Position numbers and translations under genes: made by a program. From positions 62,001-126,000 of the forward strand of contig JAYWIR010000105.1 in NCBI GenBank assembly GCA_036172245.1: a DNA stretch of 64,000 nucleotides. The letters run 5' to 3'. A model generated the notes under the pieces. That model was given only the letters and a program-made list of their open reading frames with translations, ran no database searches and was not told the origin of the DNA. Below are positions 3,001 through 47,050 of this stretch, in pieces. Positions within the stretch are counted from its first letter, which is position 1. The number at the start of each line of letters is the position of its first letter. Origin of the DNA: Raillietiella orientalis. Its lineage: Eukaryota.

Positions 3001-4429
3001 AGCATCGAACTGCAGGTGCAGTTTCGCATGCTGCGGCTCTGTGCCAAGCTGTGGTGTACGCCGTGGTGCTTACCCGCACGCCTTATACTGAGGCGCTGCA
3101 CGGGAAGCGAGGGACTGCTTTCGTTGCTACCCCACTTTCGGCACACCAGAATAGGGTTTGGCTTCCCGCTGAGGCAGCTGTCCTCACTGCTGGAAGCCCA
3201 AAGCTGGATCTCCTGCCGCCCCATGAACATTAATCTATGGCGGCAGGAATCTTTTTCATCGTGGGCAGCTTCCGAAGGAACGCGCCCGGAAGATCTTCGA
3301 CGCCTCCGACTTCTCCTCAGTCATCAAATGGACGAAGTCAAGCAGGACAAGAAGTTGTCGGATCGTCTGTCCGCCACACCACTCGCCGTAGCGCTGTCTG
3401 CCCTCAGGGCAAGCAACGACGGTTGCCTACCGGCGGAATGGGAGTTCTCCTGCAAAATAGCGGGAGTCAGAAAGCTCCTCGGCAGCTGGACGACAAAGGA
3501 GCTGGTGCAAGCCGCCACACCTCGGAATCGGGCGAAGGGACTGCTTCGGTGGAGCGAACATTTAAGTGTGCCCCCCGGAGAGATAGTGGTTCTTCCCGTT
3601 TGTTTGGACAGCTCCGTGTTCCCCCTTAAGTGGAAACAAGATGTGCTGCTCTTTTTACATTGTGCATTTCACTGTAATAGGCAGCGAAGCATCGTTTCCG
3701 GGGGAGCTGCTTTGCCAAACTGTTTAAGGTGCGGAGAGATCGAGTCTTTTCCGCACCTTTTGTTGGACTGCGTTGACCTCCGGGAACTGTGGCGAAGGCT
3801 CACTTCGGCCATCATGCCACAAGGAGGCACTGCCATTGATGTGCTGCGGAGCTTCTTCAGCAGAAATGGACTTTCGGTTGGCGCGATTGTCGCAACCATG
3901 TGTTGCGTTCGCGCCATCGTGAAGGCCCGCTACGCCCTGGAGTTGTCATCGCAGCGAACGGAGGCTCACCTGCTTGCAGCTCAATTCATGGAGAAGGCTT
4001 CAAGGTGGTCTCATCTTCGTGACAAGGTGAATGAGGACATCACCGGCATACATCGCCGGTTTACACACCTTTGAGAACGGCGTAATCCGGTGACCCCTGC
4101 GACCTCTCGCCCACCCATAGCCCGTCCCCGTTCGCTCGGTAAAATTTCCGGTGCCCATGCTTTTATCCCCGTGTCTTCCAGAGCGATCCCAAAGACCCTT
4201 ATCCCGTCCTCCTTATTCATTGTTTTTATTTTATTTTGGTTTATTTGTGTTTCCCGCCCCCCCACACCGTTCACAAAACTGTTACTCTGGCCTGCGTGCC
4301 AGCAATATTCTCTTCATTCTTGTTCAGTCGTCGGTTGGGAGTTTGGTTCCCAACTGGTTTATTTTGTATAATTGCTTTTTTTTTGGTTATGTTATATGGA
4401 ATAAACGCCCCGGCGTGACCGGGTGAGAA
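1..4429 (+). mobile_element. L1/Tx1-type non-LTR retrotransposon L-a (5' end outside window)
   Basis: ORF1 C-terminus to 507; ORF2 with WNVNG, QE, YAP, GDFN, SDH (APE), PGEDG, WRPI, KAFD, QGD, YADD, YLG (RT), CLRCG..HLLLDC; 3' UTR ends AATAAA-cgCCCCGGcgtgaCCGGGTG-agaa. Confidence 0.95.
507..4074 (+). pseudogene. ORF2 (APE endonuclease-reverse transcriptase) of L-a, two frameshifts (~750, ~2870)
   Basis: ORF-track pieces 504-845, 704-2998 and 2860-4074 join into one ORF2; the second shift lies in a C run and could be a sequencing error. Confidence 0.9.
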
Positions 4430-6318
4430 ATCTCTTGCGCTTGTTCTGCAGAGATCACATGGATCTCCTGCAGCAGCACAAGGTCGAACGATCCTAGAAT
4501 GGCGGCCATGTCTCGTTTCCTACCGGCGTCTGTCATGCCGTTCACATTCCAAACGGCGATGCGCAGACGACGGCGGGAGGAGATTCCCGGCATTACTGCC
4601 GGGAAGATGACGGTGTGGGGGAACCCGCCTCTTCCGAGGCGGGTGAGATGACCATTAGGGTTTCAGCCTCCGCAGGCACCTTCGGTACCTCTCCGGCTTC
4701 AACCCCCTCCATCTCTCCGTTTCTGTGCGTAGTGGTCTCTCGGGTGACGATTCCCGGGATTCTCCCACGCTCATGGCACCCTCGCAGTCGGAAGTCATCT
4801 CCACGCCTTCGGCCTGGAGAGGGGCTTTCCAGGGTTTGCTAGACTTCTTTCCAGCCTTCCGGCGGGGTGCCGCGTAGATGGAAACTTGGTTTCCGGCCTG
4901 CGCTTCGGGGTCGGAAGTTACCCACTCCTCGGTGGAGGCCGGACGCCTCGCTGCCTTTTTGCCAGCCTTGGAGGGGTCTGGCTGCAACGATGCAGACAGC
5001 TCCTCCGCCGCACGCTCCAAGGCGGCGTCATCCATCACGGTCTCGATGACGGACGCTTCCGCCGGTTCGCTCCCCACGCTGTTGACATTTTCAACAGTGG
5101 GTTGCTCGTCGGTAGCAGCGATTTCTACCTTGCGGCGTTCGGCGGGGACGCGTTCCACGACGACGCTGCATTCTTTAAATTCTCGCTAACCTGCTTTTTT
5201 TATTTTGGTGGGCGAGCTTTTTTGCAATTCGTCGTTCATTCTTCCACTTTTTCTTTTTTGCTGTGGCTTCTTACCATTTCGTCAACTGAGTGCTTTTGTC
5301 GATCTTTTCAGCATTCGTTGCCGGAATGTCGGCTGCGGCCTCGACCACGGATGTGGGTGGCACAGCTTGAACGGCAGCCTTCGCCGCCAGCCTTTGCTGT
5401 GGCAGCCGCGCGCGTTTTTTTAGGTTCCTCGCGGAAACCACGCGCACAGCGGATTGTGGACACACTTCCTTCGTGTGGCCCATTGTCCCGCATACCAGGC
5501 ACTGTACGTTGAGGCACCTCCTTTTCAGGTGTCCCGACGTGTTGCAGAAGTCACAGTATTTGGGCTTCCCCACGTACCAGAGGTCGACGCTTTCTGCGCC
5601 GACCACCAGTTTCTGGTGAAGGGTAGAGCCCTCCCGAACGGTTACACGGGCAGCCGTGAGGCCGCACTGAACTGTGGTATAGTCCTCGAAAGGACTTGGC
5701 TTGGTCTATACCGCATGGACCGTGCCTTCTTTTCCCAACGCGGCGCGTAACTGCTCTTTCCGCATCCGCGCGGTAACTCCTAAAATGTGGACCACCATAC
5801 TGTGGTTCGCCATAATGGGAAGGAGCCTGCGTTGTTCCATCACCACGGAAGTTTTGAGCAGACGTTGGGCCAGATCTGCGTATTTGCAGATCACCTGTAC
5901 GTACTTCTTCCTGCTACGAATGGTCATAGCGCAGAGCTTCTCCTCTTTAAAATCGAGAGCGCGCATCTTCTTCGAAAAGGCGCGCCCACTCTCAGGAGAA
6001 TACAAATCTCCTTCCTTGTAGAATAGTGATGGGTTATAACCCTCTTCTACATAGGCAGATAATTCCGCCGCGGCAGCAGGTGATGGCGCCGACACGACGG
6101 CGCTATACGCCCGCGCTGCAGCGGGGACCGGTTTTGTGATGGCGGACGCCCTTACCTCCTTCGCCACTAAAGGCGACGTTACCGCCGCCACCTGGCACGC
6201 ACTGGCGGTCGTGTCAGGCATTGCTGCCTGATCGACCACCACAACACACGAAGCCTACACCTAGGAACGGTTCCCGGCACGAGGAGCACCGAGGAATTAC
6301 GTCCGCTCTAACTGACGT
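4430..6318 (-). mobile_element. LINE L-b: 5' end, decayed ORF1 and first ~55 codons of ORF2, cut by L-a
   Basis: ORF1 ATG at 6221; knuckles CDFCNTSGHLKRRC and CLVCGTMGHTKEVC; ORF2 MPGISSRRRLRIAVWNVNG from 4593. Confidence 0.9.
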
Positions 6319-8476
6319 AAAGCGTTCGATTGCGTCGACCAGGAACTCCTTCTGGAGCTATTGGAACTCTTGGAATTCCCGAAGGTCTTCCGAACTTACC
6401 TGCACTTTTGCGGACGCTTCGCTGTAATAAACATTTCTTTTAGCGGTTTGGCACGTGTACGGCGTGCCGGTTTGGCGTGGCATAAGGCAGAGTGACAGTC
6501 TGAGCCCCTTGCTCTTAAGCTTCTACTTCGAGATGGTGCTGAGGGCATACAGGGAGGCTTTGGCATCCCTGTCGAGCTCATGTCCCGGCACGCCTGCCGT
6601 GTCGGCCTATGATGACGACCTTCTGCTCCTGCTCCCCGGGTCCACTCCGGAGTCGGCGCTCGAGGATTTCTTTGAGTTGCGGCGCCGCGGGACGGGCCTC
6701 GAGGTGAACAGAAACAAATCCCCAATCGTTCCTACATCACCACTGCTTTTTGCAAATACGGCGTGGGCCGGACGGTCGGACTGGATCCGCTTAAGGATAC
6801 CCACGGGCAGGTGCTTCAATTACCTGGGCGTTTCGTTGAGGGACTTCTGCGTTGCAGAAGCCTGATCCGACCGTCTCCAAAAGGTGGAGTTGGCGATCGG
6901 CCTGGTCCGGAAGGGCAAGTTTTACTTGAAGGAGCGAGCCGCGGTGTGGAACGCTTTCGCGGCCTTCCTCCTTCGGTCCTTAATTTTTGCTTGCCCCGCC
7001 CCTTCGATCATGCAGAGACGGACTAAAGCCCTCTTGAGAACTGCCCTTTGGGACACAGCGAGGTCGCGTGTCCGATTGAAAGACTTGCGCGCTCCACGCA
7101 GGGATGGTGGCTTGGGCCTCCTTACGTTGGAGCGCATTGAACTGCACATTTCACTTCGTAAGTTAGCCCTTGCGGCTACCTTATGGATGACGCCTTGGTG
7201 CGATCCGGCACGGCTCCTCGCCAGAAGAGCGACCGGCTTCGAAGGATTGTCCTCGATCCTCGTGACCTACCAGCACAGCCTCTGCATATGTGGCCCCCAT
7301 TTGCGCCAGATTGTCGTCCTGATGAGGAAGAATACCTGGATCTTCTGCCTCCCCGCGAACTGCACTGTCTGGCTTCAGGAGTCAGCCTCCGCGTGGGCTA
7401 AGATCAACGGCACGAGCGAGACGGAATACAACTGCGTACGACGAGGACCGTACGATCGACAGCCGCCGCAGGAGATTATCAACACACCCCGGAAGTGTCT
7501 GTGGGTTTCTTTTAGCCTCCTTGCCCCCGTTCTTTCCTCACTTGAAAACACTAGAAGCAGCAACGAGCGGACATCGTGGGAAGTGTCCTGTTTCATCCGA
7601 GGCAGAAAAAAACCTTTAAAGGCGTGGACGACTCGGGATCTAACGGACGCTGCCACCCCGAACGTCCCGCCTCACGGACTTGCGCGCTGGGAAGAGCTGC
7701 TCGCAATACCTCCGGAGTAGGTGAAGTGGCCCCCAGCGTGTTGAAATTGCGGCACACTTCCGTTAAAGGGGCAGGAGACGCCGTTGCTATTTCTGCAGTG
7801 GGGACTGTTAAGCACAGCACGTTTTTCTCACTGGACACTAGGGAATGTGGATGCTCGCTGTGTCGAGTGCGGAGAAACAGAAACCTTCCCCCATCTCACC
7901 CTAGAGTGTGTCGCCCTGGATGGACTCTGCAGTCGAATTGCTCCAATCCTCCATCTTCCAGTAGGCGACCCTAAGGAAATTAACCGTCGCCTCTTTCTGC
8001 GTGACGGCCTGCGCCCCGCTGCGTTTCTAGCAGTCGTTTGCTGCGTGTGCGGCATTGTGCAAAGGTGGCACGCCAGAAGAATAGGCCCAAGATGCAGGGA
8101 CGTCATCCACTGGACGACGATCTCTTTGGAGACGGCGACAAGGTGTGGTCTACCTTTCACAGTAAAAGCTGACTTGACTGCATCCTGAACAGGATGCGGA
8201 AGACCGAACCAGGCGCCCAGTGATCCCTTTACTCTCCTCCACCTCCCCATAGAACAGTTTCTCATCCCGTTATTTCCGTTTTTTTTTTTTGTTTCCTTTT
8301 TCCCCTTTCCCAGCGCCTGGGGAGATAAACTCGGCAATCTAAGGACCGAGTAGGGAGTACATTGTAGCGTGAGAGAATTCAGTGTTCCTCAAAGAAAATT
8401 TTTTTTTTAATCAGTTTATTATCTAATTTTTGGAATAAATTTGAAAGATGAATGCCCCTATATATCCGGGTGACAA
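6319..8476 (+). mobile_element. LINE L-c: 5'-truncated (mid-RT to 3' end), decayed
   Basis: KAFDCVDQ at start, SAYDDDLL, CVECGETETFPHL; ends ccgggtg-acaa. Confidence 0.9.
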
Positions 8477-11400
8477 ACGTTGGCAGTTCCCGAGCACTGC
8501 AGGCCTTGGTCGTCGAGCAGACATGCCGCTCCTGACTGCCAGACCGGGCGCTCGGCCTTGGCCTCGTACTCCGCAAGGTACCAGACGTCCGTGCATCCAG
8601 AGAATTGGCGGGCCTGCAGAAACTCTTTGCTGTTGGCCACTCCTTCCCCGAAGCCATGACAGAGCAGGTGCAAGGAGAAACGGCTACAGAACTCGCGGAC
8701 TGATCTTTTCAGATCGTCCCAGTCCACGGGCGAAAGCGGACGGCTTTTATTTCGCTCTTCAGCGTTGGTGGTTTTATTTTTTTCTTTTTTTTCTTGGTGT
8801 GTTAGTGGATTCGGTGGTGGCTAGGCAGCCATGCCTGGGATCACCACCAATGTTAAGGAGGGAGCGAAGTCTATGTGTCCTCTTGAATCAATGGATGTGG
8901 GGGCAACCGCCCCCACAGAAGCGACTCCCTTGCTAGGGAGAAGCTGGAGTTCCGTGGCTGCGGCGCCAACGCAAGCGGCTGCGGCTGAGTTGAAAGCCTA
9001 CCTGGAGGAGGGGTACAATCCCCCACTACTCTACAAGGTAGTCAACCTTTACACCTTTGAGAGTGCACGCGCTTTCTCAAAAGCGATGCACTCCCTCAAA
9101 GTACCCCAGGAGGAGCTCTTGGCGATGGCCATCAGGAGTGGTGGACAGTACGTTCAGGTGATTTCCAAAGAAGCAAGTCTTGCCCAGCGTTTGCTCCGTA
9201 TACCTGTTTTTTTAGGGAATCGCCGGCTCTTATTAATCACGGAGGATAGATCTATCGTGATCCACCTTCTTGGAATCACCTTCCGGATGGCCCAAGAGGC
9301 TGTCCGAAAGAACTAATTGAATTTGGGACTGTCCACGCGTTGTGGAATAGGTCGACTCCGTTTTGGGGGTACGATCTCCTGAATTGCGGTGTGGCTTCCG
9401 CGTGCATCACGGTCCGCGAGGGTTGCTCTCTACCTAACGAGCTGGAGGTCAACGGCGAACCCGTTGACTTCTGGTATGTCGGTAAGCCGCATTTCTGCGG
9501 GCATTGCAGCACTTCAGGTCACCTGAAAAAAGGGTGCCCCCACTTGCAGTGCAAGCAATGCAAGCAACCCAAGCACACTCTTCCTGTGTGCCCGCAAAAT
9601 GAAGTCCGCGTCGCGTCCGCACGGAATGCGAAGAAGCGCGCGGCGAGAAAAAGAAGAGTTTAGGCAGCCCGAGAGAGAGCCGCCGCTCGAAAAACAACTA
9701 TCGTGACGCAGGTGAAGGTTAGCTCCGAGATCTTGAAAAACTCGGACAAGGTCGAGGAGAACGGCGAGAAACCTTTATGGCAAGTAGTAAAATTCAAGAG
9801 GTAGAAAAGCCTCAAGGAACCAAAAAAAAATGTCGCGAAACGCAGCGAGAATTTGCCGCGTCGCGAAAATATCAAACGCTGCTCTGTCGTCATCAAGCGC
9901 ATTCCTGCGGTCGAACCGAGCGGCAAAATTGCACTCGTCGCTGCCGACCTTCAGCCCTCCGGTAAATTAATGCCGGCGGCTATCGACCCGGCGGTGGCAT
10001 CCGTCCTCGAACGCATGCTCGATGACGTCACCTTTGAGCGAACGGAGGAGGAGCTCGCTGCGTCCTTGCAGCGTCCCCTTAAATCCGCGAAAAAGGCCTT
10101 AAGGCGTCCGACCTCGATCAAGAAGTCGGAGATTTCGATCTCTGACGCAGAGACGGAAAACACAGCCTGTGGCATCGCGGCATATCGCCCGAAGCCAATC
10201 GCACGAAGCAGGCTACCCGCATAATTATCCCGTCCGTAAAAAAGGGTTAGATAATTGAGGGAACCGAGCGTGCGTATAAAGTGGGGAACTCCGGGGACTC
10301 TCCTCGAGAGGTAACCTTACGCTGCGACCCCGGAGGGAGGGAAAGGGTAGAGTCTGTGCCCCAGATGCTTCAAGTGCCTGAGATGGCCGCGGTCCCCTTA
10401 CTCGTCCCTCCCACCTGTCCGTAGACAGGTGCTGCAACGCCACGTTCCCAGCTTTAATGCCAGAAATCGCCTCTTGCCGCCGTCTGCGGATTGCCTGTTG
10501 GAACGTCAACGGGCTAAGCGACGACGGCAAGAGACGAGACTTGGCCTTCACCCTGGCATCGTTCCACCTGGTGCTGCTGCAAGAGATCCACGTGATCTTC
10601 GCTGATCAAGCAACGAAGATCGAGCGTATCACGGGTAGACGGCTGCTATCGCGTTGCGGCACCGTCAAATCTTGCGGTGTCGCGTTCCTACTTCGTCCAG
10701 CTTTCGAGGCTGCGGCAAAGAGCGTACGGTTCGATAGTGCCGGTCGCGTCGGGCAGTTGACCATTAGGTGGTCGGACTCCATTGATCTGATCATTACCAA
10801 CGTGTACGCCCTAAGCGGCAGCGACGCAATAGGGGCAAAGGCAAGTTGAGATTGCTTCCTTACCCTGAGGCGCGAATATCTGGACGAAGCGGTAGTGCGC
10901 AAAGCGCATCTAATCGCAGGTGTCTTTAACCTGCGCCTGCTGTCAGGTGCGTGCGACACACTTCGGGACCGCATGAACGAGCTGTGCGCAGAGATGCACA
11001 CGCTTAACTTGTTTGCGGGAGATCCGGAAAGGAACGACAGCATAGATCACGTGTTTCTTGACCAGCACCTATGCTCACGCGTGGGCAGGCGCGGCAATTT
11101 ACCGTCGGAACTGTCAGACCATGACCGGATCGTACTCGAGGTGCTCCCACGCGATAGGGGTCCGCCGTCATCTGCGTGGCGCTTACCGGGGGACTAGCTG
11201 AATCTTCCGGAAGCCGCAGAGCATCTCCGCGGATTCATACGAGGTTTCAGTTTGCCGACGCTCCAGGACTGGGACCGCTTCAAGCGCTCGGTCCGGGATT
11301 TTTCCGACGAGTTCCCTATGAATCTCCTGCCTGCCGGGTTTGGTGAAAGCGTGCGTAACGAGAGATGGTATTTAAAATCTCGATGTTACGCGCGAACACC

Positions 11401-14400
11401 AGACGTACGCAGGCTAGCCGAATACCTTGCGGGAACCAAGAGGCAGGCGTGGCAGCCGGGTCGGCCAGCTTACTGGACGACCAGGACACTAAGCACTCGG
11501 CTCCCGTTCAGGTAAAAGGCTTATTAAAAAAATTCTACTTATCCCTGTACGCGCGCGCTTTACCGGAACAGGATGTTTCGCGACTTCTTCTTCCGGAAGG
11601 CGCTCCGGCGATCCGGGAGGAAGATAGAAAGACCCTCGACGAGCCTTTCACAATGGGCGAGATCATCTCGGCCATCGGAAAGCTCAAGAGGCGGAAGGCT
11701 CCAGCGAAGGACGGAATGAAAGTGGAATTTTTTTAATGTTTCCCAACAAAGCTCACTCCTCTGGTGAAGAAACTCACCTTGCTGATCCGCGAAACGGGCG
11801 ACGTCCCCGCCTCGTTTCGTTCGGCAAAGGTGCGTCTCCTCCCTAAAGGAGGAGACCTTCGGAGCATGAGCAACTGGCGGCCGATTACCGTGATAAACGC
11901 GGACGCCAAGTTGCTGGCGAAATTGTGGGCTCAACGCCTGGGGCGGTCAGCGGAAAGCTTCATTAGCCCGGAGCAGACATATGCTGTTCCTGGGCGGAGC
12001 ATGGATGCCAACCTGTTCCTCGCCAGCACCTTTTTCGCGCTCCAACAGGGAAGGGTCAGGAAGGGCAACCGGACTTCCGGAATGTCCGCCGCTAGGAAAC
12101 GGGATGGTTGGGGGGGGGAAAGATTCCTCGCAGTCGCAGTCGATTTGCATAAAGCATTCGACTGTGTCGACCAGAGGCTCCTCCTGGAGCTCCAGGAACG
12201 CTTGGGCTTCCCGGTCTCTTTGCTGACCTACCTGCGATCCTGCTGGCGCGACGCGCTCATCCAGATCTTTTTCAGTGGACACACCGTGCACGGCGTACCG
12301 GTGCGACGCGGCATACGGCAGGGAGACAGCCTGAGTCCCTTGCTCTTCAGTACCTACTTCGAGTTGGTACTGAGAGCGTACAGCGAAACTCTAGCGCACC
12401 TGCCGCGCGACTATCCCTGTACGCCCGCGGTGTCAGTATATGCAGCCGACCTACTGCTGCTGCTTCCTATGTCAACCCCGGCATCGGCGGTGGAGGAATT
12501 CTTCGACCTTCTAAGTCGGGGAACCGGGCTTGAGGTGAACAGGGCGAAGTCGTCCGTCATGCCAATCGGTGCGGCGTGGGCAGGGCAGCCGGACTGGGTC
12601 CATTTAGGGATTCCCACGGTACCGTACTTCAAGTACCTCGGTGCACCGATGGGTGATTATCTTCCTTCGGATGCGTGGTCCAGCTGCCTTCAAAAGGTAG
12701 AACGGCGATCGGCCCGTTCCAAGGCCGCAGGTTTTTCATGCCGGAACGGGCCGCGGTGTGTGACGCATTCGCGGCCCCCCTCCTCCGTTTTCTGCTTTTC
12801 GTTTGTCTTCCCACCACAGAAACTAAAAAGCGGACAAAGGACCTCCTAAGGATTGCCCTGTGGGGTAATGAGGTGCACGAGTCCACCTTGAGGACTTGAG
12901 CGCTTCGCGTCGGAACGGCGGTCTCGGCCTCCTGACGCTAGAGCGGCTGGAGCTCCAGCTCCAGTTTGGGTTACTCGCCCTAGTGGCGAAATATTGGAGT
13001 AACAGTTGGTAAGAGCCCGCACGTCTCCTCGTCGAGCAGGCTACAGGCAAGGTGGGACTGTCATCCTTTCTTGCGCTCCGTCGGCGCCGCCAAGTCGGTC
13101 ACGGCGGGTTGCAGCTGCGGACAGTGGCTGACCTGATGAGGAAGAACGCGGGATGGCTCTGCTGTCTCCCCATTAATGGACCTTCATGGCTGCAGGAAAC
13201 CGTTCAGACGTGGGCAAGGATCAACCATCAACGCACCCAAGAAGAACAGAGACAATTCTTCGCCCGTAATGACCGCCTGACGCTCCGGGAGGTCTTGGAG
13301 AGCCCCCAAAAGCAAGCGTTGAAAAGAAAAACTCCTCTATCTCAATGCTGTTTTCCCCAGTGAAATATCCTGACAGCAACGCTGCGGCGGCATAGGAAGT
13401 GAAAGCTGAAACCTTCGGTACGGAGAAATAAATTGGGCAATGGAAAACAGGGATTCCTTGAGAAACTGCTGCTTGGATAACAACCCAATTGGACTTTTGC
13501 GCTGAGGCAAGCTGCTAAATGTCACGCGGTAACAATTAAAGTGGTCCCCGGTGCTGATGAACACCTCCACCCTCCTTTTAAAATGGCAGGAGTCGGCGCT
13601 TCTGTTGCTGCATTGGGGACTCCCCTGCAACGCCCGCCGACACCATTGGACCTGGGGAGCGGTGAGCTTTAATTGTGCGAGGTGTGGAGCACAAGAGTCC
13701 CTCTCTCACCTCCTTTTGGATTGTGTGGCTCTTCGGCCCCTTTGCAACCATTTTGCCGCGGCAATCGGTATCCCCTGTGGCAATCCCAGAGACGCAGTTA
13801 GGTCCCTCTTCGTTTGCAATGCCCTTCGGCCTTCGGCCTCGTTTGCAGCCCTGTGCTGCTTTCGCAGGATCGTCGCTGCATGGAGCAAGGCAACGGGAGG
13901 ACCACGCGATATAGGTGCCGTCCAGTGCGCAGCCGAATTTATGAGGACGGCGACTGGATGGACCCATCTGGATACATCAATCATAGAACAGCTTGTTGGC
14001 ATTATAGAAAGAATTGAACGGCCCCGCAGCAGATTGTGATCCCTTCCCGTGCTCACCAGATCTTGTTTTTATATTTCCTATTTTTCATTTATTACTTATT
14101 GTTTTATCCCAACCCCCTTAATTTTCGTGGTGGACCGTACCCGACTGGGAACCGGTGAACCGGCAGACTTATTTTTGTTTGTTATTGCGTGGCTGGAACA
14201 CCAGTTTTGCCACAGTGTCTCGATTTATTCGAAACAATAAGCAACTTGGCGCAACCGGGTGAGAAGCGAGTTTACAGATGGCGAAGCCACTCAAGTGCTG
14301 GCGAAGATGCTCCGCCGCTTCCGGATTGCTAGTCCAGTCGGCCGACAACCTCCAGACATTCATCGGAGGTCCTTTGCCAGGCGGAAGATGCTCGCACTCT

Positions 14401-34290: not shown

Positions 34291-35283
34291 GGTGAGTCCG
34301 TTCCTTCCTTCACCCCCCTTGCCCCAGTGCTGCCCTCCCTCAGGAAAGTTCCGGACAGCCACCAACAGGCATCGTGGGAAGTGTCCTGCCCCATCGGAGG
34401 CAGGAAAAAATCACTGAAGGCGTGGACGCCTAGGGAACTAGCGGACGCTAGTACCCCGAGTGTCCCGCCGAACGGACTTTTACGCTGGAGCGCGCTGCTC
34501 GGTATACCTCCGGAGGAGGTGAAGTGGCCCCCAGCGTCATGGGACAACGGCACCCTTCCCCTGCAGTGGCAGGAGACGGCGTTACTTCTGCTCCACTGGG
34601 GACTTTTAAGCAGAGCACGCCTGTCTCGCTGGACATGGGGGAATGTGGATGCTAGTTGTGCAGAGTGCGGGGAAAGGGAGACCTTCCCCCACTTGATTCT
34701 GGAGTGTGTTGCCCTCCACGAAATGTGGGACAGACTCTCGTCGATCCTCAACATTCCGGAGGGTGACCCAAACAATTTATTCTAACGCCTCCTGACGCGA
34801 GACGGCTTGCCAGCCTCCGGGAGCGTAGCAGTACTCTGCTGCATACGCGGTATCTTGGAGAAGTGGACCGCGTCTAGGAGAGGAAGGACCAGCCGGAATG
34901 GCATCCACTGGGCAGCGATCTCCTTGGAGAAAGCGTGCCGTTGGCGCCGACTTCAAAAACATTTGCCGGCACTTGTTCGCATCCGAAACCGGATGCAAAG
35001 GCCTGCTCACGGCGCACCGTGATCCCCTCCCTCCCTCCCCCTCCCCAAGAAACATTGCCTTCCAGACGTTTCTCTTTTTGTTTTTGTTTTCTTTTCTTTT
35101 TCCCGTCCCGGTGCCAGTGAAGGACCTTATCGGCCCCCGGGTCGGTAAGCACGAGTGCTACTGAACTTCTGAACTTAACTTCTGACGACGTAAAAAGAAA
35201 AAGTTTAACTACATAGACTTTGTTACAAAATTTTGTAATATCAAAATTTTAGTAATAAAAGCCCCGGCTTACCCGGGTGAAAA
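34291..35283 (+). mobile_element. LINE L-l: 5'-truncated 3' fragment (L-c-like lineage)
   Basis: WEVSCPIGGRKKSLKAWT, CAECGERETFPHLILEC; ends ccgggtg-aaaa. Confidence 0.9.
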
Positions 35284-36899
35284 ACCTGAGCTGGGCTGGA
35301 GCGTTCTTGGTTCTGATGGTCCAGCAAGCAGGCCGAGACTGACTGCCAGGCCTGCCTCTCCGCCTCAGCTTTGAATTCCGCCAAGCGACGGACGTCGGGA
35401 CGCCTGGAATACCGGCGGGCCTGAAGGTAGGGCGGCACGTTCCTGACCCCATCGCCGAAGCCCGGCGGAAGACGTTCCAGGGGAAACTGGTCGCAAAACT
35501 CGCGGACTGAGCACTTCATTTCGTGCCAGTCCGCGAGCGTCTCAAGATGGAATCCTCGCAGGAAGGCGCGTAGATGTTCCGCCGCTCCTGCGAGGCGCAA
35601 CCAGCCCCCTGGCAGGCGCCACGTTTTCAAGGGAGGGCCCTTATTCCGCGAATGCAATCCGAGCACGAGCCGTGGATGGTCGGACAGCTCTGCCGGGAGC
35701 GTTCCTCGAGTTCCCACCCGCGTGCACAGGTGGTTCTCGAGGAACATGTGATCGATGTTCCGATCTCTCCCGGCATCACCGGCCAACAAGTTACGCGCAT
35801 TCATTGCTGCGCACAACTCGTTCACCAGTTGTGCTCGACTGCTGGGCGCACCTGCAAGCAGGCGGAGATTGAAGTCGCCCGCGATGAGGTGCGCCCGCCC
35901 TACGCTTGCTTCAGCCAACCAGTCTCGCCTCAGGGATTCGAAGAACGCAGTGCGTTCCTCGGCCCTGTGGCTGCTCACCGGAGCGTACAGGTTCGTCACC
36001 ACGAAATCGATCGAGTCAGAACACTTGAACGCAAGCTGCCCAACTCGACCGTCCTCGTCAAACCTGACGCTGCGCAGTGCGTTGTCGACGGATGGCTTCA
36101 GCATAAAGGCCACTCCGCAGGAGCGGTCGTTTCCGTTTCTCCACAGTAGCCGCCCTCCCGCGATTCTTTCCATTTCCTGGACATCTCCCGGTCGGAGAAC
36201 GTGCGTCCCTTGCAGGAGCACCAGGTCGAAGTCTCGCAGTATGGCGGCTACATCTCGCCTCTTTCCGTCGTCGCGCAACCCGTTGACATTCCAACAGGTG
36301 ATGCGCAAGCGGCGGCAGAAGGCGAGCCCACGCACTGATGCGTTTATTGTGGGGTGGAGGCGGCCTCCTCCCTTGCGGGAGGCGGCTTGTTGGCGGCCGT
36401 GACGACGGTCGGCTGCTCACACGGGAGCACGTCGTCCACAGCGACTTCCATGAGGCTGGCTTCCGAGACACGGATCGGAGAGGGGTCGCGTGGCGCGACG
36501 CACATTGCCTCCTCCTCCGTGCCCAAGGACATGGCATCCTCCACCTGCGGAGGGGCGACCAGTCTCGGGCAACCGGTCTTCTTGCCAGCTTTCCTCTTCG
36601 GCACGGCTGCGGAAGTAGAACAACAGGCTTCGGTTTCGGACTCGGAATTTTCCGGGCCCTTCACCGTTGCCGGTCGTCTCAAGGCCTTCTTTTCGGCCTT
36701 CGCAGGCCGCCTGAACATGGCTGCCAGCTCTTCCGCGGCCTGCGCGAAGGTCGCGTCCGTTATGCGCGCCGCCTCCTCACTTTCCGCACCGACGTTTGCG
36801 CAGGCGCGACAGGGGCGGCTTCATCGATCGGCGCGCAGACGTCCTTCGCTGGCAATGCCGGAACGGCATTGTCGTCAGCTAATGGTGACGTCACTGCGG
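35284..36899 (-). mobile_element. LINE L-m: ORF1 3' part plus ORF2 APE region
   Basis: ORF 35241-36335 carries the APE motifs; ORF1 tail 36344-36718. Confidence 0.92.
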
Positions 36900-39839
36900 T
36901 TGACACCCGGATGTGCCGGGGCATTTATTTCCTTGAAATAAAAGTACATGAAGTGTCGCGTGGCGAACTCCAAGGTTCACCACTGCAAAACAGCTCGCTG
37001 GTTACCGGCTCCATGCCGGAGAGGTCCTTCCGGTTCGCGGGGATGGGAAATAAAGAAAAACAAAAGGTAACAAAAAGTTTAAATGTGGGGGGGAACAAAT
37101 GTTGTAGGGGTGGGAAGGCCGGGAAGGGATCACGGTGCGCGTGGGAAGGTCCTCTAGTTCCTATTCAGGATCCGCACAAGCTGAGTCCTTTCAGCGCCCA
37201 AGTGGCGCCACTTGCAGACACTGCGCGCGAAAAGGCGAGTCCAGTGTAAGGCGTTGCCGGTTGGCTGACGCCATCTTCTGGTGGCGTTCCAAGCCGCCAC
37301 TATTCCTCTGATGCAGCAGAGGAGTGCTACACTAGCGGGCGGGGACAAGGCGTCACTACAGAAGAGGCGCCTGAAAACGTCCTTAGGGCCGCATCCGTGC
37401 AAGTCCAGGATCCCCGCGAGACGATCCCACAAAGGGCGGAGGGTGCTACACTCAAGGAGAACGTGGGGGAATGTTTCTTTTTCCCCACACCAGTCACAAT
37501 TGGGATCCACAGCCCCACGGGTGGTGTGGTGCAGGCGAGCTTTAAATGGTAATCCCCAGAGTACCACAAGCAACGCCACATCCTGCAATTTCAGGGGGAG
37601 GGATGCACTGTTCCAAAACGCTGGGGGCCACTTCATCTCCTCCGGAGATAGTCCGAGTAGCTCGCCCCAGCGTCGAATTCCGTTGGGCGGGACACTCGGC
37701 GTCGCAGCGTCAGCTAGCTGCCGAGATGTCCACGCCGTTATCGATTGTGTCCTGCCGCCTATAGTGCAGGACACGGTCCATTTCCCCTGCTCGCTACTGT
37801 CCCTGGCATTCACAAGGAAGGGCAGCACTGGGGCGAGTGGGTTTATCAAGGCCCACAGAAGCTTGTCGTGGGACTGCACGATCTCCTGCAGCGTCCAACG
37901 GGCGTGCCTTTTCATACAAGTGTTCCTTGTGCCCGCCGGAACGTGGATCTTTTCCCAGGTGGAGACTGACTCGTGCAACCAGGCGGAGTAGTTCCCTGGG
38001 AGGCAGGAGATCCAGGCGTTCTCCCGAACCGTAACAAAGATGCGCCGCAGCATAGAGCCACAGTATGGTCTTCTGCAGACGCGCGCAGACAGAAACGACA
38101 AAAGTCCGCCGATTCCGCAGGCTCGTTGGGCCAGGAGGCGTGCTGCAACGCACCAAGGCGTGTCCCACAATTCCGCCGCAAGGGCGAGAGTCCTGAATCG
38201 AAGTTGTAGTTCCATGCGCTCCAGCGTAAGTACGCCAAGTCCACCGTCCTTACGTGGAGCGCACAAGTCTTTGAGCCTCACACGGGACCTCCCTTTGCCC
38301 CAAAGGACTGTCCTCAGGAGGCCCGCTGCTCGTTTCCGAATAAAATAAGGGGCGGGGCAAACAAAAAGTAGGGGGAGAAGGAGGGGAGCCGCAAACGCGT
38401 TCCACACAGCGGCCCGTTCCTGCAAGTAGAACTTGCCTTCTTGGAACGGACCGATCGCCAACGCTGCCTTTTGGAGTCGGTCGGACCAGGCTTCTGCTGC
38501 GCAGAAGTCCCCCAACGGTACGCCGAGGTACTTGAAGCACCTGCCCGTGGGGATCCCCAAGCGGATCCAGTCCGACCGTCCAGCCCACGCCGAACCGACG
38601 AACACCATGGACGACTTCGACCTGTTCACCTCCAGGCCCGTCCCGCGGCGCAGCAACTCGAAGAAGTTCTCGAGTGCACTCGCCGGGGTGGACCCGGGAA
38701 GCAGCAGCAGAAGATCGTCTGCATAGGCCGACACGGCAGGCGTGCCGGGACACGAGCTCGGCAGGGTTGCCAGAGTTACCCTGTATGCCCTCAGCACCAA
38801 CTCGAAGTAGATGCTGAAGAGCAAGGGGCTCAGGCTGTCACCCTGCCGGATGCCGCGGCGCACTAACACAGCGTACACGTGCCTGCCGCTGAAACCAATA
38901 TTGATTGACGCGTTGCGCCAGCAGGAGCGCAGGTAACATTGAAGCACGGCAGGGAAACCCATGCGTTCCAGGAGCTCCAGAAGGAGAACCTGGTCGACGC
39001 AGTCGAATGCTTTGTACAAATCGACCGCGACGGCAAAGGCTCCCGCCGAGTCCATCCCACCCTCTGCCCGATCTTCTTGGTCAGAAGGGGGCGCGAGGCT
39101 CCCTTGACCGTCCTGTGCAACGCGTTGTCGCAACTGCCACCATGAGCTGGCGAGGAGCAGGTTGGCCTCCATGGTTCGTCCGGGAACAGCATAGGTCTGC
39201 TCGGGACTCACCACGGAAGCGGCCACCCGCCCCAAACGCTCAGCCCACAACTTGGCATACACCTTTGCGTCCGCATTCACTACTGTGATGGGACGCCAGT
39301 TGCCAATGTTGCGTAAGTCTCCTGACTTCGGCAGGAGACGTACTTTTGCTGACCGGAACGAGGCGGGAACTTCGCCGTGTTCGCGGATCAGCGTACTTAA
39401 CCTGAGCACCAGGGGGGCCAGCTCTGGCGCGAAGTGTTTGTAAAACTCCGCGGGCAGGCCGTCCTCCCCTGGTGCCTTCCTTCTCTTGAGCCTGTTGATG
39501 GCGGAGATGATCTCCGCCATCGTGAACGGTTCCGCCAATCTGGAACGGTCCTCCTCCTTGAGCGCGGGAGCGCCATCCGGCAGCAGGCGCTGCGCGAAAT
39601 GGCGCTCAGCTGTTAGTGGCGCGTACAAGGAGGAATAAAACTCCCGCACGATGCGGCTTACCTGGGCGGGGCTGGAGCGTTCTTGGCCCTGATGATCCAG
39701 CAGGCAGGCCGAGCCTGACTGCCAGGCCTGCCTCTCCGCCTCAGCCTTGAATTCAGCCAGGCGACGGTCGTCGGGACGCCGGGAATAACGGCGCGCCTGG
39801 AGGTACGCCCGCTCGTTCCTGACACCCTCACCGAAGCCC

Positions 39840-41388
39840 TTTCCTGGAAGGCAAGTTTCACTTGCCGGAACGGGCCGCGGTTTGGAACGCCTTCGCGGCC
39901 CCCGTACTCCGCCCCTTGCTTTTTGTTTGCCCCGCCCCCGTGGAATCGAAAAAGCGGACGAAGGACCTCCTCCGCATAGCTCTTTGGGGCAAGGGGAGGC
40001 CCCGAGTCCCTTTGAAGGACTTGTGCGCTCCGCGTCGGGACGGCGGTCTCAGCATCCTGACGCTGGAGCGCGTGGAAATCCAGCTGCGATGGCGGACCCT
40101 CGCCATCGCAGCAAAGATGTGGAGCACCGCTTGGTGCATTCCGGCCCGTCTCCTGGCCAGGCGTGTGTCCCGCTGCGAAGGACACGCATCGTTTCTCTTG
40201 TGCCCTGGCCGGAAGATTCGAAGATGCGGTCTACTGCTCGGCCGCATGGCAACCCTGGCAAAGGAGAACGACTGGATGGTTTGTGTCCCTGCCAACTCCT
40301 CCGCTTGGCTGAAAGAGACTGCTGGCACCTGGGCCAAGCTGAACCAGAGGTGCGAAGACCAGATGAACTGCCTGCGAGTCGGCTTTTACGCCCGCCGAAC
40401 TCTCCGTGAAATACTTGAATTTCCACCGAGTTGCACGTGGGCGGAAGGCACACCCCTTGTTACGGCGATGCCCTTCCTCCAAAGGGCGCTTCACGGAAGC
40501 CGCAAGCCAAGGTGGCAAGTCTGCTGCCGTATCGCAGGCAGAGAGAAGATGATCAGCGGCTGGACCATGGGAGAGTTGACAGATGCAACGACCCCTAGTC
40601 TCCAGGCGCGTGGATTAAGAAGATGAAACGAGCTGCTCGGCATTCGATTGGATGACCTGAAGTGGCCCCCGGTTCTTCTTGGATCCAGGATTCATCTTCT
40701 GAAGTGGCAAGAATCGGTGCTTCTGTGGCTGCATTGTTGTCTACCCTGCAACGCGCGCCGCTTCCACCGGACGCGGGGAAGAGTAAATCCTGCGTGTGCC
40801 AGGTGTGGGGAGCGGGAGTCGCTCCCCACCTTATAGTTGAATGCCCTGCCGTCCAGTTTCTTTAGTATCGTTTGAAAACGGCCCTCCGGATACCGGATGG
40901 TGGCAATGTTGGATGTGTCTTCAGTCTTGTCTTCGTGCGGGACGCCCTCAGTCCAGCCGCAGCCCTGGCAGCACTTTGCAGCATTCGTGGTATCCTTGCC
41001 TCCTTGAGTGATGCCAAAGATGAAGACTACATCGTGAGGGACGTCAACGAGTATGCTTCTCGCTTCCTGCAGAGAGCTACCCGATGTCCCCACCTAGGAA
41101 AACTGAAAATGGAACTAGAAGGCATCCTGCAAAGGATGGGCGCTCCCAGCAGTTTTCTGTGATCCCTTCCCGGCCCTCCAAACTTTTTTTTTTGTGGTTT
41201 TTTTTTCTATTTCATCTTATTTTTGTTTTTTCTTCCATCCCCCTCTACTGCCGAGAAGAGCCACACCGGGCTGCGTCCCGGTGTACCGGCAGTTTCGGCA
41301 TTCCGTGGCCGTCAGTGGGGCTTTGTACCACGTTCTGTATTGACCGTTGAAATGTTTTTAATAAACGTCCCGGCGTATCTGGGTGGCA
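39840..41388 (+). mobile_element. LINE L-o: 5'-truncated copy closely related to L-p
   Basis: Nearly the same sequence as ~45505-47050; ends ctgggtg-gca. Confidence 0.93.
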
Positions 41389-41400
41389 TCGCCGAAAGCC

Positions 41401-44400
41401 GGTGTGGGTGGACGTGTTTTTTGGTCGCTCCGCCAGCGCTTGTCTGGGAAGCAACCGGAGTTTTTAGTGTAGTCAGGTGTAAAGTGTGGGTCGTCGGTGT
41501 CCGATTGCAGCCGTGCCAGACGACACCGCAATGGATGTAGTTGTGGGGAAGGCAAGTCCTTCCACAGGACCTACGGGTATGGGTGGAATAGTCCCTGGAA
41601 CGTCTTCGCAGCCGGCGAAGACTTGGAGTGAAATGGTCGCCGCCCTTAGTGCGGAGGCCATGGCCGAGGAAGCCGCCTATCGGGCCTCTGAATACAAGTA
41701 ATCGCTTGTATACAAGGTAGGCCCTTTGTTTGAAGGAAACACGGCGCGCTCTTTCAGCAGAGCGCCACAAAATGCTAATGTCCGTAAGGAAGTTCTGGAC
41801 GGTCTGTGCGTGCTCAGCGGGGCGCAGCGGGTTGAGCTGGTGTGCAAGAGCATCAGCCTAGCCGATCGCCTTATATATACCCCGCTAATCATGGACGGCC
41901 GTAAGATCTTCCCGGTGTCAATGGACCACTCGGTAGTGGTCCACTTGACAGGAATATCCAAGCGCATGACGGGCACTGCCGTAAAAGCAGAATAAAGTAA
42001 GTACGGGGACGTACACGCGCTGTGGCCGAAGCCCATAATCTTTGAGAATTACGGACGCCACTTCGGGGGCCTCGCCGCGGCACGCGTAACCCCAAAAAAC
42101 GAAGCGAAGCTACCCCACAAACTTGAGGTCGCGGGAGAACCAGTAGACCTCTGGTATGCTGGCAAGCCACGGTATTGCGGCTACTGCGATGCGGTCGGAC
42201 ACATCCGTAAGAGGTGCCCGAACATCGTATGCTACTTGTGCGGGGAGAAGGGACACGTCCGTCGCGTGTGCCCTAAACGCCCCACCTTGATTTTCTCGGC
42301 CGCCAAAAAGGCGCAAGCGAAACGCGCGGGGAAAGAAAAATTAGAAAACCGTGAAACTGGCCGAGAAAAGCTGCCAATAACCCAAGCTCCAAGCGCGGCA
42401 TCGGAGAAAAATCTTCCCGAAACCGCAGAGGGTGAACAGGGCTGGCAGCTAGTCAAAGCCAAAAAAGAAAAACAGGACAAGCATGTCCCGAAGAAAGGAG
42501 AGAAGGCGGCGGCCGGAACAAAAGCTCAATCCGTGTCGCGCGTAAAAACTCTCCGAGAATGCACGGTTACGCTGGAGCGCATTGACGTTCCCGCCGACAC
42601 CACCGGAGGCGATACGGCTTCGATCGATTTTCCCGCCGCGACGAATGCGCGCGAAAACCCACCCCCTGCTTGCGAAGAGGGTCAGCCGGACGACCAAATT
42701 GCCGAAACCAAGGACGCAGCCTTCGAGAAGGCCGCCGAGGAGCTTGCGGCAACGCTTGCCGAACGCGAGAACCCTTCGCGAAAGGGGTTGCGTAGGCCGG
42801 CAGCGGCTAAAGTGGCCCCCGCAGGTGAGTCGGACCGGGAGGCCGGAAGTGCATCCTCCTCTGCGGACGCACCACCAAGGAAAGCGGGGCGAAAATCCCA
42901 GAAACCCCGAAGGTGCATTCCGCCTCCGCGCGAGGGGGATCCAATGGAGGAGGAACCAGTGGATGACAGCGTGGGAGCCCAAGTCGGGCATTACCCACGT
43001 GCGGAAGCCGACGAGAAGGCGACTCCAATGGAGGAGGGTAACCAGGGGTCAGCAATGCCCTCTGAAACCGCCGAACCTGAACCACCCGCACCAATGGATG
43101 TGGGCCAACAGGTACCAACAACACCCCCTTCGCACGGGCAGCCGGAGACGTCGGCACGTGAGAAGGATGGGGAGTTGGTGGGCAAGACGCCAACCCCGTC
43201 CAGCGACCCGCCCCAAAAGGTGGCGGGAGCACCACCGCCAGGTTCCCAGGAATAACACCTGGACTCGCCTGTCGCCGTCGGATCCGCGCGGCCAGTTGGA
43301 ATGTTAATGGGCTGCGCGACGACGGAAAAAGACGAGATACAGCCGCCACCTTGCGAGATTTCGACCTGGTGCTTTTGCAGGAGATCCACGTGATCACCGC
43401 AAAAGACGCTCAGGAGATCGAAACGATCGCGGGAGGGCGGTTGTACTGGCGATGCGGCGCCCGCAACACTTGTGGGGTCGCGTTCTTCCTAAAGCCAGCC
43501 ATTAACGCAGCCGTGAAGGACGTGCGCTTTGGGGACGACGGACGGATCGGCCAACTGATTCTCAGATGGTCCGATTCGATCGACCTCATCGTCACCAATG
43601 TGTACGCTCCTAGCGGTAAACAGGGATACCAGCAGCGCAACGCGTTACTGCAAACCTTAAAGCGCGAATGGCTGGTGGACGCGGACGTGCGAAAGGCGCA
43701 TCTGATAGCAGGGGATTTCAACGTCCGTCTGCTCTCAGATCAGCCCGGAGCACAGGGGAACGCGATCAACGAGTTGTGCGGCGCCATGCGCGCGCTTAAC
43801 TTGTTGACAGAAATAAGCGGGATGGTCAACAGCGTGGACCACGTCTTCCTCGACGAAGACCTGTGCACACGGGTCGGAAAACGAGGGACGCTTGGATCGA
43901 CGCTGTCGGACCATTCCCGGTTAGTATTCGAGATGCGCCCGCGCGACAAGGGACCGCCATCCAGGGATTGGCGTATGCCAGGGGACTGGACGCGCCTGTC
44001 AGGAGCGAAAGAACATCTTCGCGAATTCCTGCGAGGCGTCACCCTCCAGAATCTCGCGGATTCGGACCTATTTCAGGACTCGGTCCGGGAGTTCTGCGAA
44101 CAGTTCCCAGTGCAACGTCTGCCCCGGGGATTCGACGAAGGGGCTCGCGACGAACGCGCGTATTTGCACGCGCGTCGTCACGAGAGGAACCCCAATGTCC
44201 GTCGCCTGGCCGAATACCGCGCCGGAGCCGAGCGACAAGCCTGGCAATCCGGGTCAGCCAGCATGCTGGATGACCTGGGCCGGGAACGTTGGTCCCCGTT
44301 TGCGGTACGGAATCTCGTGCGGTGTTTTTATTCCTCCCTTTACGCCAAAACTCCACCCGAACAAGACGCCTCGCGGCGATTGCTCATGAGTGGTTCCGTG

Positions 44401-47050
44401 GCGATAGGGGAGGAGGAGAGAGAAAGCCTCGATGAGCCTTTCACGACCGGTGAAATTCTCGCCGGTATCAAAAGGCTCAAGAGGCGTAAGGCGCCAGGGG
44501 AGGACGGCTTGCCCGCGGAGTTCTTTCAGAGTTTCGCGGAAGAGCTGGTTCCCCTGGTGCTCGAGTTGACAAGGCGAATCCGAGACGAAGGCGATGTTCC
44601 CGCCTCGTTTCGGTCAGCCAGGGTGAGGCTCCTCCCGAAGGGACGAGACCTCAGGAAACTTTGCAACTGGCGTCCGATCACGATTGTGAACACGGACGCC
44701 AAGTTGATTGCCGGGCTGTGGGCGTCGCGATTGGGGCAGGTGTCCAATTCCATAATTAGCCCGGAGCAGACATACGCTGTTCCCGGGCGAAGTATGGAGG
44801 ACAAGCTCTTCTTCGCGAGCACATGGATGCACGCGCAGCGGAGTAATAAAGAAGGGAAAGGGAAAATTTGCAACCCTACTTTGGGGCCGCCAGTGGGATA
44901 GGGTAGGGACCCTCATGCGGGAAAGGGGGCCTTAGCGATCGCAGTCGACCTCCATAAGGCATTCGACTGTGTTCGGCGAAGGGTCGCATGGGCTTCCCAC
45001 CCTCCTTGATTTCTTACCTGCGCTCTTGCTGGCGGAACGCGATACTCTCAATTTCTTTCAGTGGACAAAAGGTGTATGGCGTGCCGGTGCGGCGGGGCAT
45101 AAGGCAGGGCGACAGCCTCAGCCCCTTGCTTTTTAGCACCTACGCTGAGTTGGTGCTGAGAGCGTACAGGGTGACTTTGGCCCCCTTGCCGAGCTCGTGC
45201 CCCGGCACGCCAGCCGTAGCGGCGTATGCCGACGACCTTCTGCTCCTCTTACCTATGTCCACCCCGGCGAATGCGGTCGGAGACTTCTTCGATCTGCTCA
45301 GCCGCGGGACCGGACTGCAGGTTAACAGGGCGAAGTCGTCGGTTGTGCCAATAGGTGCGCCGTGGGCAGGGCAGCAGGACTGGGTCCATCTGGGGATCCC
45401 CACGGCGAGGTGCTTCAAGTACCTTGGTGTGCCGTTGCAAGACTTCTCCCCTGCGGAAGCGTGGTCCAGCTGCCTCCAAAAAGTCGAGACGGCGATCGGC
45501 CCGTTCCTGGAAGGCAAGTTTCACTTGCCGGAACGGGCCGCGGTTTGGAACGCCTTCGCGGCCCCCATACTCCGCCCCTTGCTTTTTGTTTGCCCCGCCC
45601 CCGTGGAATCTAAAAAGCGGACGAAGGACCTCCTCCGCATAGCTCTTTGGGGCAAGCGGAGGCCCCGATTCCCTTTGATGGACTTGTGCGCTAAGCGTCG
45701 GGACGGCGGTCTCAGCATCCTGACGCTGGAGCGCGTAGAAATCCAGCTGCGATGGCGGACCCTCGCCATCGCAGCGAACATGTGGAGCACCGCTTGGTGC
45801 ATTCCGGCCCGTCTCCTGGCCAGGCGTGTGTCCCGCTGCGAAGGACACGCATCGTTTCTTCTGTGCCCTGGCCGGAAGATTCGAAGATGCGGTCTACTGC
45901 TCGGCCGCATGGCAACCCTGGTAAAGGAGAACGACTGGATGGTTTGTGGCCCTGCCAACTCCTCCGCTTGGCTAGAAGAGACTGCTGGCACCTGGGCCGA
46001 GCTGAACCAGAGGTGCGAAGACCAGATGAACTGCCTGCGAGTCGGCTTTTACGCCCGCCGAACTCTCCGTGAAATACTTGAATTTCCACCGAGTTGCACG
46101 TGGGCGGAAGGCACACCCCTTGTTACGGCGATGCCCTTCCTCCAAAGGGCGCTTCAGGAAAGCCGGAAGCCAAGGTGGCAAGTCTGCTGCCGTATCGCAG
46201 GCAGAGAGAAGACGATGAGCGGCTGGACCATGGGAGAGTTGACAGATGCAACGACCCCTAGTATCCAGCCGCGTGGATTAAGAAGATGGGGCGAGCTGCT
46301 CGTTATTCGATTGGATGACCTGAAGTGGCCCCCGATTCTACTTGGATCCAGGATTCTTCCCCTGAAGTGGCAAGAATCGGCGCTTCTGTGGCTACATTGG
46401 GGTCTACCCTGCAACGCGCGCCGCTTCCACTGGACGCGGGGAAGAGTAAATCCTGCGTGTGCTCGGTGTGGGGAGCGGGAGTCGCTCCCCCACCTCTTAG
46501 TTAAATGCCCTGCCGTCCGGATTCTTTGGGAACGTCTTCAAACGGCACTTGGAATACCGGATGCTGTCAACGGTGGATGTATTTTCAGTCTTGTCTTCGT
46601 GCGGGACGCTCTCAGTCCAGCTGCAGTCCTGGCAGCTCTTTGCTGCATTCGTGGTATAGTGGCGGCCTGGAGTGATGCCGAAGATGAAGACTGCATCGTG
46701 AGGGATGTCATCGAGTATGCTTCTCGCTTCCTGCAGAGAGCTACCCGATGGACCCATCTAGGAAGGATGAAAAAGGAACTAGAAGGCATCCTGCAAAGGA
46801 TGGGCCCTCCCAGCAGTTTTCTGTGATCCCTTCCCGGCCCTCCAAACTTTTTTTTGTGGTTTGTTTTTCTCTTTTATTTTATTTTTGTGTTCTCCCTTAT
46901 CCCCCTCTACTGCTGAGGAGAGCCACACCGAGTTGCGTCCCGGTGTCCCGGCAGTTCCGGTATTGCGTGGCCGTCAGTGGGGCCTTGTACCACGTTCTGT
47001 ATTGACCGTTGAAATGTTTTTAATAAACGTCCCGGCGTATCCGGGTGGCA
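41401..47050 (+). mobile_element. LINE L-p: full-length (~5.65 kb) with stops in ORF1 and a stop plus small deletion in ORF2
   Basis: GGACGTG 5' motif; ORF1 to 43255; ORF2 pieces 43351-44901 and 44988-46826; ends ccgggtg-gca. Confidence 0.95.

Follow-up and report, generated by a model that had tools for sequence, protein, structure and literature searches.

A stretch of 64,000 nucleotides of genomic DNA from Raillietiella orientalis (GenBank assembly GCA_036172245.1, contig JAYWIR010000105.1, positions 62,001 to 126,000 of the forward strand; here termed the window) holds a pile of retrotransposons without long terminal repeats (non-LTR elements) adjoining a satellite array of 277-bp units at 48802-64000, and one clade of these elements carries in its 3' untranslated region (3' UTR) a small stem-loop, hairpin 1, in which a constant six-base loop, CTGCGT, is borne on stems of differing sequence. 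The explanation that is favoured here, though only tentatively, is that hairpin 1 is a selected 3'-UTR stem-loop of a hairpin-ended ('stringent-type') clade of L1/Tx1-like elements, that its loop sequence would be recognised, with the element's own ORF2 protein (ORF2p) as the likeliest reader, to give lineage-specific affinity, and that a separate terminal module would set the start of reverse transcription. Judged from sequence, a role for hairpin 1 as a protein-read RNA tag is plausible.

In a domain search the long second open reading frames (ORF2) of these elements contained Exo_endo_phos, RVT_1 and zf-RVT domains, and the first open reading frame (ORF1) a zf-CCHC knuckle, as in the frames at 41996-43255 and 32322-33407. 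The apurinic/apyrimidinic-type (APE) endonuclease, the reverse transcriptase, the C-terminal zinc-binding motif and the separate ORF1 would place the elements in the L1/Tx1-like group of long interspersed nuclear elements (LINEs), a label taken from domain make-up and nearest named relatives. A 964-residue ORF2 has as its best database relative a protein here called P0001, with which it is 65% identical, all others being at most 30% identical; those with names that come closest, at 24-30% identity, are L1-type proteins from fishes, frogs, ticks and Mucorales. Eleven 3' ends (copies A-K) were found in the window, eight by a search with the terminal module and three degenerate ones by two looser patterns.

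Hairpin 1 is part of an autonomous non-LTR retrotransposon, in which it falls between the ORF2 stop and the conserved terminus. An earlier note, made from the letters of the window, had named five such hairpins, and all five are present where it placed them, with the loop CTGCGT in four and TTGCGT in the fifth. The stem has 5 bp in copy A (4287-4302, + strand), where the hairpin appears in both the local minimum-free-energy and the centroid fold; 4 bp in copy E (31711-31724, +); 5 bp in copy F (34178-34193, - strand); 8 bp in copy I (41263-41284, +); and 8 bp with one A.C mismatch in copy J (46925-46946, +), the copy with the TTGCGT loop, in which both the altered loop and the mismatch are read as probable decay after insertion. 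Copy F is 5'-truncated and consists of hardly more than the 3' UTR, with the antisense ORF2 of copy G lying upstream of its hairpin 1, and copy J is 92% like copy I over the last 900 nt of ORF2. From hairpin 1 to the end of the conserved ...CCGGGTG terminus there are 123 nt in copy A, 95 in E, 91 in F, and 101 in both I and J. The hexamer itself occurs 40 times on the two strands of the window, and at eight of these sites it is flanked by a stem of at least 4 bp, where about 0.8 would be expected at the window's own rate of 2.1%. Four of the eight are the homologous 3'-UTR sites, two others lie elsewhere (5871; 42710, - strand), and there is one repeated pair, at 18570 and 23713. The members of this pair (18570-18585, +; 23713-23728, -) are identical 5-bp CTGCGT hairpins, inverted and about 5 kb apart in an AT-rich part of the window; they are possibly the ends of another element, and are separate from the LINE tails.

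The stem of hairpin 1 covaries around a fixed loop, as had been claimed, on the evidence of compensatory pair changes and of a loop test that needs no alignment, both drawn from few copies. Copies A, E, F, I and J align without gaps around the loop, and eight pairs were drawn. The loop columns are invariant across the five copies except for the first base in copy J, and the same loop is present in all four lineages, while four of the eight stem pairs are altered on both sides; compensating stems around fixed loop bases, found here in a small sample, are a trait of stringent-type recognition. The pairs changed on both sides are the closing pair (C-G, T-A and G-C), the second (G-C and A-T), the fourth (C-G and T-A) and the sixth (A-T and G-C). 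In the true register 80% of cells are paired, compared with 30-45% when the 3' partner is slid by one to three columns; and the covariation score of 0.463, against a shuffle mean of 0.226, was attained in 3 of 500 shuffles, a control that ignores the relatedness of the copies. RNAalifold predicted seven of the eight pairs, four of them with compensatory changes. The covariation of hairpin 1 is modest but consistent.

The loop also stands out when the UTRs are compared without alignment. With the last 35 nt set aside, lineages A, E, F and I have just two 6-mers in common, namely the loop hexamer and one T-rich word, and a shared 6-mer with at least two G arose in 0.75% of 2000 block-shuffled trials. 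The lineages bearing CTGCGT are judged to be old, because their ORF2 proteins are only 50-71% identical (A to E or J, 50-51%; E to J, 71%) and their UTRs are 57-70% alike in a forced global alignment. Copies I and J are much closer to each other (87% identical in ORF2, with UTRs 90% alike), and the two differences within their 22-nt hairpins are both non-compensatory, which fits neutral decay after insertion; the differences between lineages, by contrast, are compensatory.

The note had further proposed that the element might be lineage-specific, other lineages having a different hairpin at a similar position, and both points are borne out. A tree of ORF2, rooted by eye, was built from six window copies (A, B, C, E, H and J) and seven outside proteins; G and I, which are short fragments, and D, F and K, without usable ORF2, were omitted. 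On this tree the window copies are monophyletic, and A, the pair of C and P0001, and the pair of E and J form a clade with 100/99 support, with H and B outside it. Every bearer of the loop with an ORF2 on the tree falls within this clade. At the aligned place copy B has a hairpin with a 6-bp stem and an 11-nt loop (8329-8351, +); copy G one with a stem of 9-10 bp, including two G.U pairs, and a C-rich loop (35126-35149, +); copy H one of 5 bp with a 5-nt loop (37005-37019, -); and copy K, the UTR of which is 77% like that of H, one of 5 bp in a shifted register with an 8-nt loop (48501-48518, -). These four share a CGG/CCG core in the stem but their loops differ. Because B, G, H and K carry other hairpins at the aligned position, the CTGCGT loop is clade-specific, and a hairpin at this place is general to the family. 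Copy C, which belongs to the ORF2 clade of the loop bearers and is decayed, has only a 4-bp stem with a 4-nt loop (14152-14163, +), and its aligned hexamer differs at two of six positions; copy D, with a UTR resembling that of E, carries many mutations. Decay or true loss could account for the missing loop in these two copies, both of which look decayed.

In copies E, I and J hairpin 1 sits within an outer helix, which the earlier note had described for some of the copies. Its CTGCCG..CGGCAG arms were found at 31692-31697/31731-31736 in copy E and at 41248-41253/41287-41292 in copy I, with a wobble version in copy J, so that outer helix and hairpin 1 together span 31692-31736, 41248-41292 and 46910-46954 (all +), with the two helices of copy J arranged as in copy I. 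The helix is present, but as a covarying feature it is unsupported: across E, I, J and D five of its six pairs never vary, and the sixth is changed on one side only, giving one wobble and one break.

All the 3' tails have a common order, namely the ORF2 stop in a conserved GTGATCCC box, a T-rich tract, a C-rich tract, hairpin 1, an often long hairpin 2, AATAAA, a terminal GC hairpin and TG. Copy A is an exception in that its ORF2 stop lies further upstream, at 4074. The whole 3' UTR is exemplified by copy I (41159-41385, +), with the ORF2 stop within GTGATCCC. The terminal module is seen in copy A at 4400-4425 (+), where AATAAA is followed by a 5-bp GC hairpin with a 5-nt loop and by TG; it recurs at 31794-31819, 35254-35279, 41360-41385 and 47022-47047 on the + strand and at 34087-34112, 36904-36929 and 48402-48427 on the - strand, and degenerate versions end at 8472 (+), 14261 (+) and 28109 (-). 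From AATAAA it is 20 nt to where the conserved sequence ends. Beyond ...GGGTG (for example at 4426-4430) come two variable bases, an invariant A and often one to three more A, and then unrelated flank; the true end of the element probably lies about 23 nt after AATAAA, almost without an A tail.

In the mechanism that is proposed, the stem would serve as a scaffold, held by compensatory changes, and the sequence of the six-base loop would be what a protein recognises, the most probable one being the ORF2p of the element itself. In this way hairpin 1 would confer lineage-specific affinity for the element's own transcript and help to select the RNA for copying. The universal terminal module (AATAAA, GC hairpin, ...GGGTG) would then set the start of reverse transcription, giving copies that end without a poly(A) tail. 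As to the reader, ORF2p would be favoured by precedent, ORF1p and its zinc knuckle would be a serious contender, and the restriction of the loop to one clade makes a host factor less likely.

That ORF1p reads a selected stem-loop, its CCHC zinc knuckle gripping G residues that the loop exposes, in the manner of a packaging signal by which the ribonucleoprotein is assembled, is unlikely but deserves to be taken seriously. The ORF1 of these elements does carry a zf-CCHC knuckle, the loop presents two unpaired G beside pyrimidines, and retroviral-type zinc knuckles prefer such unpaired G. The data from the window do not separate ORF1p from ORF2p as reader; what speaks for ORF2p is that the binder of the tail in those stringent LINEs that have been studied is either ORF2 (PMC4176376) or the single R2 protein (PMC11194090).

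A further possibility, and a rather doubtful one, is that hairpin 1 is read by the host, either as an auxiliary to the AATAAA cleavage signal or as a signal for stability, export or localisation to which a host protein binds. The hairpin lies about 70-110 nt upstream of AATAAA, the placing of AATAAA 20 nt before the conserved end is a normal spacing for cleavage, and the entire distal UTR is a row of hairpins. A signal read by the host would, however, be expected in all of the co-resident lineages, whereas this loop is limited to one clade and the sister lineages have others; nor did the tails match any known RNA family. Over the whole window Rfam (release 15) gave no match at the gathering score, and when hits with E up to 5 were admitted over 4000-14400 and 31500-48700, hairpins 1 and 2 and the terminal modules remained free of any overlap. 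The one weak hit within a tail, to NPPA-AS1_3 at 34250-34340 on the opposite strand, reached 20.3 bits where the gathering score is 55 (E 0.79); it touches no more than the T-rich beginning of the copy F UTR and was set aside as chance. Self-cleavage, which had been raised as something to check, likewise found no counterpart, no ribozyme or other Rfam family being matched even at E up to 5.

Several observations weigh against a selected, protein-read hairpin. The sample comprises only five copies of four lineages, all within one 64-kb window, and the shuffle control for covariation is blind to their relatedness. Copies C and D, which belong to the same clade or UTR type, lack the CTGCGT loop. 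Stringent-type recognition hairpins are usually found at the RNA end, but hairpin 1 stops 91-123 nt before the terminus, where a separate GC hairpin sits. A fixed 65-nt window around it (-145 to -80) shows no gain in stability over dinucleotide shuffles (a mean z of -0.42 for 11 copies), ten of the 11 copies being unremarkable and copy I alone reaching z -3.55; thermodynamic stability was accordingly rejected as evidence for hairpin 1. In the minimum-energy folds of the tails of copies E and F competing pairings are used, and that of copy E is without the inner hairpin. The small number of sequences, the absence of excess stability and the competing folds of two copies would fit a hairpin 1 without function, a short GC-rich structure handed down from a shared ancestor that covaries by chance in a few related copies; and short GC hairpins are common, a 4-bp stem around any 6-nt loop occurring at 2.4% of positions in the LINE part of the window. 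Such an origin is nevertheless improbable: the loop hexamer is the sole non-trivial word kept across UTRs that can barely be aligned, and three or four pairs have changed on both sides and yet remain paired, to a degree that the slid registers do not approach.

It is very improbable that the feature acts at the level of DNA or the minus strand, as a hairpin in first-strand cDNA or as a protein-binding palindrome in the integrated copy, for although the five hairpins 1 have no G.U pair and fold equally on both strands, and the A.C mismatch of copy J would be a G.U pair on the opposite strand, compensating stems around a constant loop are what usually marks an RNA that is recognised by its loop, and the G.U pairs of the neighbouring hairpins (hairpin 2, and the terminal hairpin of copies C and I) and of hairpin 1 of copy G fit the sense strand only.

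The tag hypothesis might be extended to a two-site code, in which hairpin 1 and the terminal hairpin would together specify the lineage and either one reader or a contact between the loops would see both; on present data this is a speculative proposal that is more probably wrong than right by a wide measure. Internal and terminal loops share short words, GCG(T) in the CTGCGT clade and GGCAT-type words in copies H and K. Pairing between 5 nt of the internal loop and the terminal loop is possible in five of five copies, with only two to four Watson-Crick pairs and in part by use of a stem base. The core of each hairpin 1 has more letters in common with the terminal-hairpin loop of its own lineage than with those of others: over nine lineages (J being dropped as a near copy of I, and D as without a clear hairpin) the longest common substrings of own pairs sum to 35, compared with a permutation mean of 27.9 (P 0.003). 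Both the likeness and the pairing rest on two clades and on very short words, and the likeness amounts to two or three events. A two-site code, if it were true, would stop co-resident and mutually nesting LINE lineages from copying each other's RNA.

Searches for further members of the family had little yield. A covariance model built from the five copies recovered those five at 41-54 bits, the next match in the 64-kb window scoring 12.8 bits, and no partner among short interspersed nuclear elements (SINEs) was seen. The terminal-module pattern matched one locus in public metagenome contigs, which on inspection was a chance match without a LINE tail, and none in prokaryote genome contigs. One DNA sequencing run contained a fraction of 0.06 of the sampled words, and there was no RNA run among those listed. 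From the contigs of that DNA run 46 short pieces could be placed at 80% likeness, mostly less than 90% alike; among the variants listed from it none lies inside hairpin 1, which says nothing on covariation. As a literature term CTGCGT returned, among the matches listed, only oligonucleotide or miRNA sequences, none of them relevant.

The remaining 3' UTRs lie on the + strand in copies A (4075-4425), B (8220-8472), C (14036-14261), E (31614-31819), G (35019-35279) and J (46823-47047), and on the - strand in copies D (28109-28333), F (34087-34291), H (36904-37133) and K (48402-48631). All 11 UTRs begin with a polypyrimidine stretch, a long T-rich part followed by a C-rich one (for example 41170-41245), which would be a purine-rich run in first-strand cDNA. 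Hairpin 2 of copy A (4330-4358, +) has 12-13 bp including G.U pairs, and its counterparts are at 34118-34144 (F), 36960-36983 (H) and 48458-48481 (K) on the - strand and at 31755-31775 (E), 41315-41331 (I) and 46977-46993 (J) on the + strand. The prediction of hairpin 2 is strong for copies A, F, H, K and C (-9 to -17 kcal/mol). No relationship is seen between its sequences in different lineages, and between H and K there are one-sided changes only, pairing being kept by way of wobble. AATAAA can in most copies pair with a TTTAT-like word that shortly precedes it (for example at 36924-36942, -; 48422-48439, -; 4360-4405, +), forming a weak hairpin of -1.5 to -8 kcal/mol that would hide the signal. 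Taken over their distal 150 nt, the tails are modestly more stable than shuffles (mean z -1.38).

The LINE copies are nested in one another, and their 3' junctions recur at set places in other LINE copies, as would fit site-specific nesting, with a target type that does not track the type of hairpin 1. Copies A and F have their junctions (4426-4632; 33833-34086) in antisense endonuclease codons near residue 95; copies B, E and G (8473-8808; 31820-32046; 35280-35462) in antisense ORF2 near residues 130-149 of the copy H query; and copies H and K (36530-36903; 48162-48401) in sense ORF1, after about residue 229. Copy I, which ends at 41385, lies directly upstream of the nearly full-length copy J of the same family, the ORF1 of which starts at 41996, in head-to-tail arrangement. 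The satellite on which the LINE pile abuts comprises 55 tandem copies with 90% matches, and reaches the end of the window.

To our knowledge, template choice in the L1 clade is well understood only for the poly(A)-dependent mammalian L1. The interest of the present elements is that they are an L1/Tx1-like animal family ending in a hairpin rather than in poly(A), with an internal hairpin besides, the loop of which has not changed between lineages that are 50% identical in ORF2. In its exchanged stems and loops the family provides a natural series on which the encoding of template specificity can be studied, and with several lineages sharing one genome and inserting into each other, the series also bears on how lineages stay separate.

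Among known systems, a comparable pattern is that of the tails of ZfL2-1, ZfL2-2 and the eel element UnaL2, in which the stem is swappable so long as it pairs, the loop gives cognate specificity, and lineages in one genome have different loops (PMC4176376, PMC1636434); the zebrafish L2 ORF2 reads the stem through a conserved region and the loop through a variable region (PMC4176376). Those recognition hairpins, however, lie in the last 60 nt or so, beside a short repeat tail, whereas hairpin 1 has a distinct terminal hairpin downstream of it, at a distance of 91-123 nt; and the present elements are L1/Tx1-like rather than members of the L2 clade. Within the L1 clade itself, a monocot lineage (the LINE1-1_ZM group) has a 3' hairpin with conserved loop bases and compensatory stem changes (Ohshima 2012, PMC3472496). 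This group and L1-1_CR of Chlamydomonas resemble the present family in having a conserved 3' structure that is taken as a mark of stringent recognition in a mostly poly(A)-dependent clade (PMC3472496). The monocot structure differs in being a single hairpin in the last 45-50 nt or so that is shared with SINEs, where the elements described here have at least two conserved hairpins, and the window showed no SINE partner; beyond the present family, the closest ORF2 in the database is at most 30% identical.

For a division of labour between an upstream and a terminal structure a parallel is the Bombyx R2 3' UTR, which has little sequence conservation except at a few positions. High-affinity binding by the R2Bm protein depends on two stem-loops, of which the 3'-terminal one positions the template (PMC11194090). 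R2 nevertheless has a single ORF and a restriction-like endonuclease, and its two stem-loops are adjacent, while here another hairpin and AATAAA intervene; the analogy is one of function only. SART1Bm, an insect element of the R1 clade, is similar in having two ORFs, proteins that recognise the 3' UTR in trans, and internal stem-loops well upstream of the end, but it ends in poly(A) that is needed for accurate initiation (PMC7265360, on Osanai et al. 2004); the elements here are almost without an A tail. L2, R2, SART1 and a plant L1 lineage are established cases of protein-read stem-loops in the 3' UTR, and hairpin 1 introduces no new principle: it would be a known strategy in a new family.

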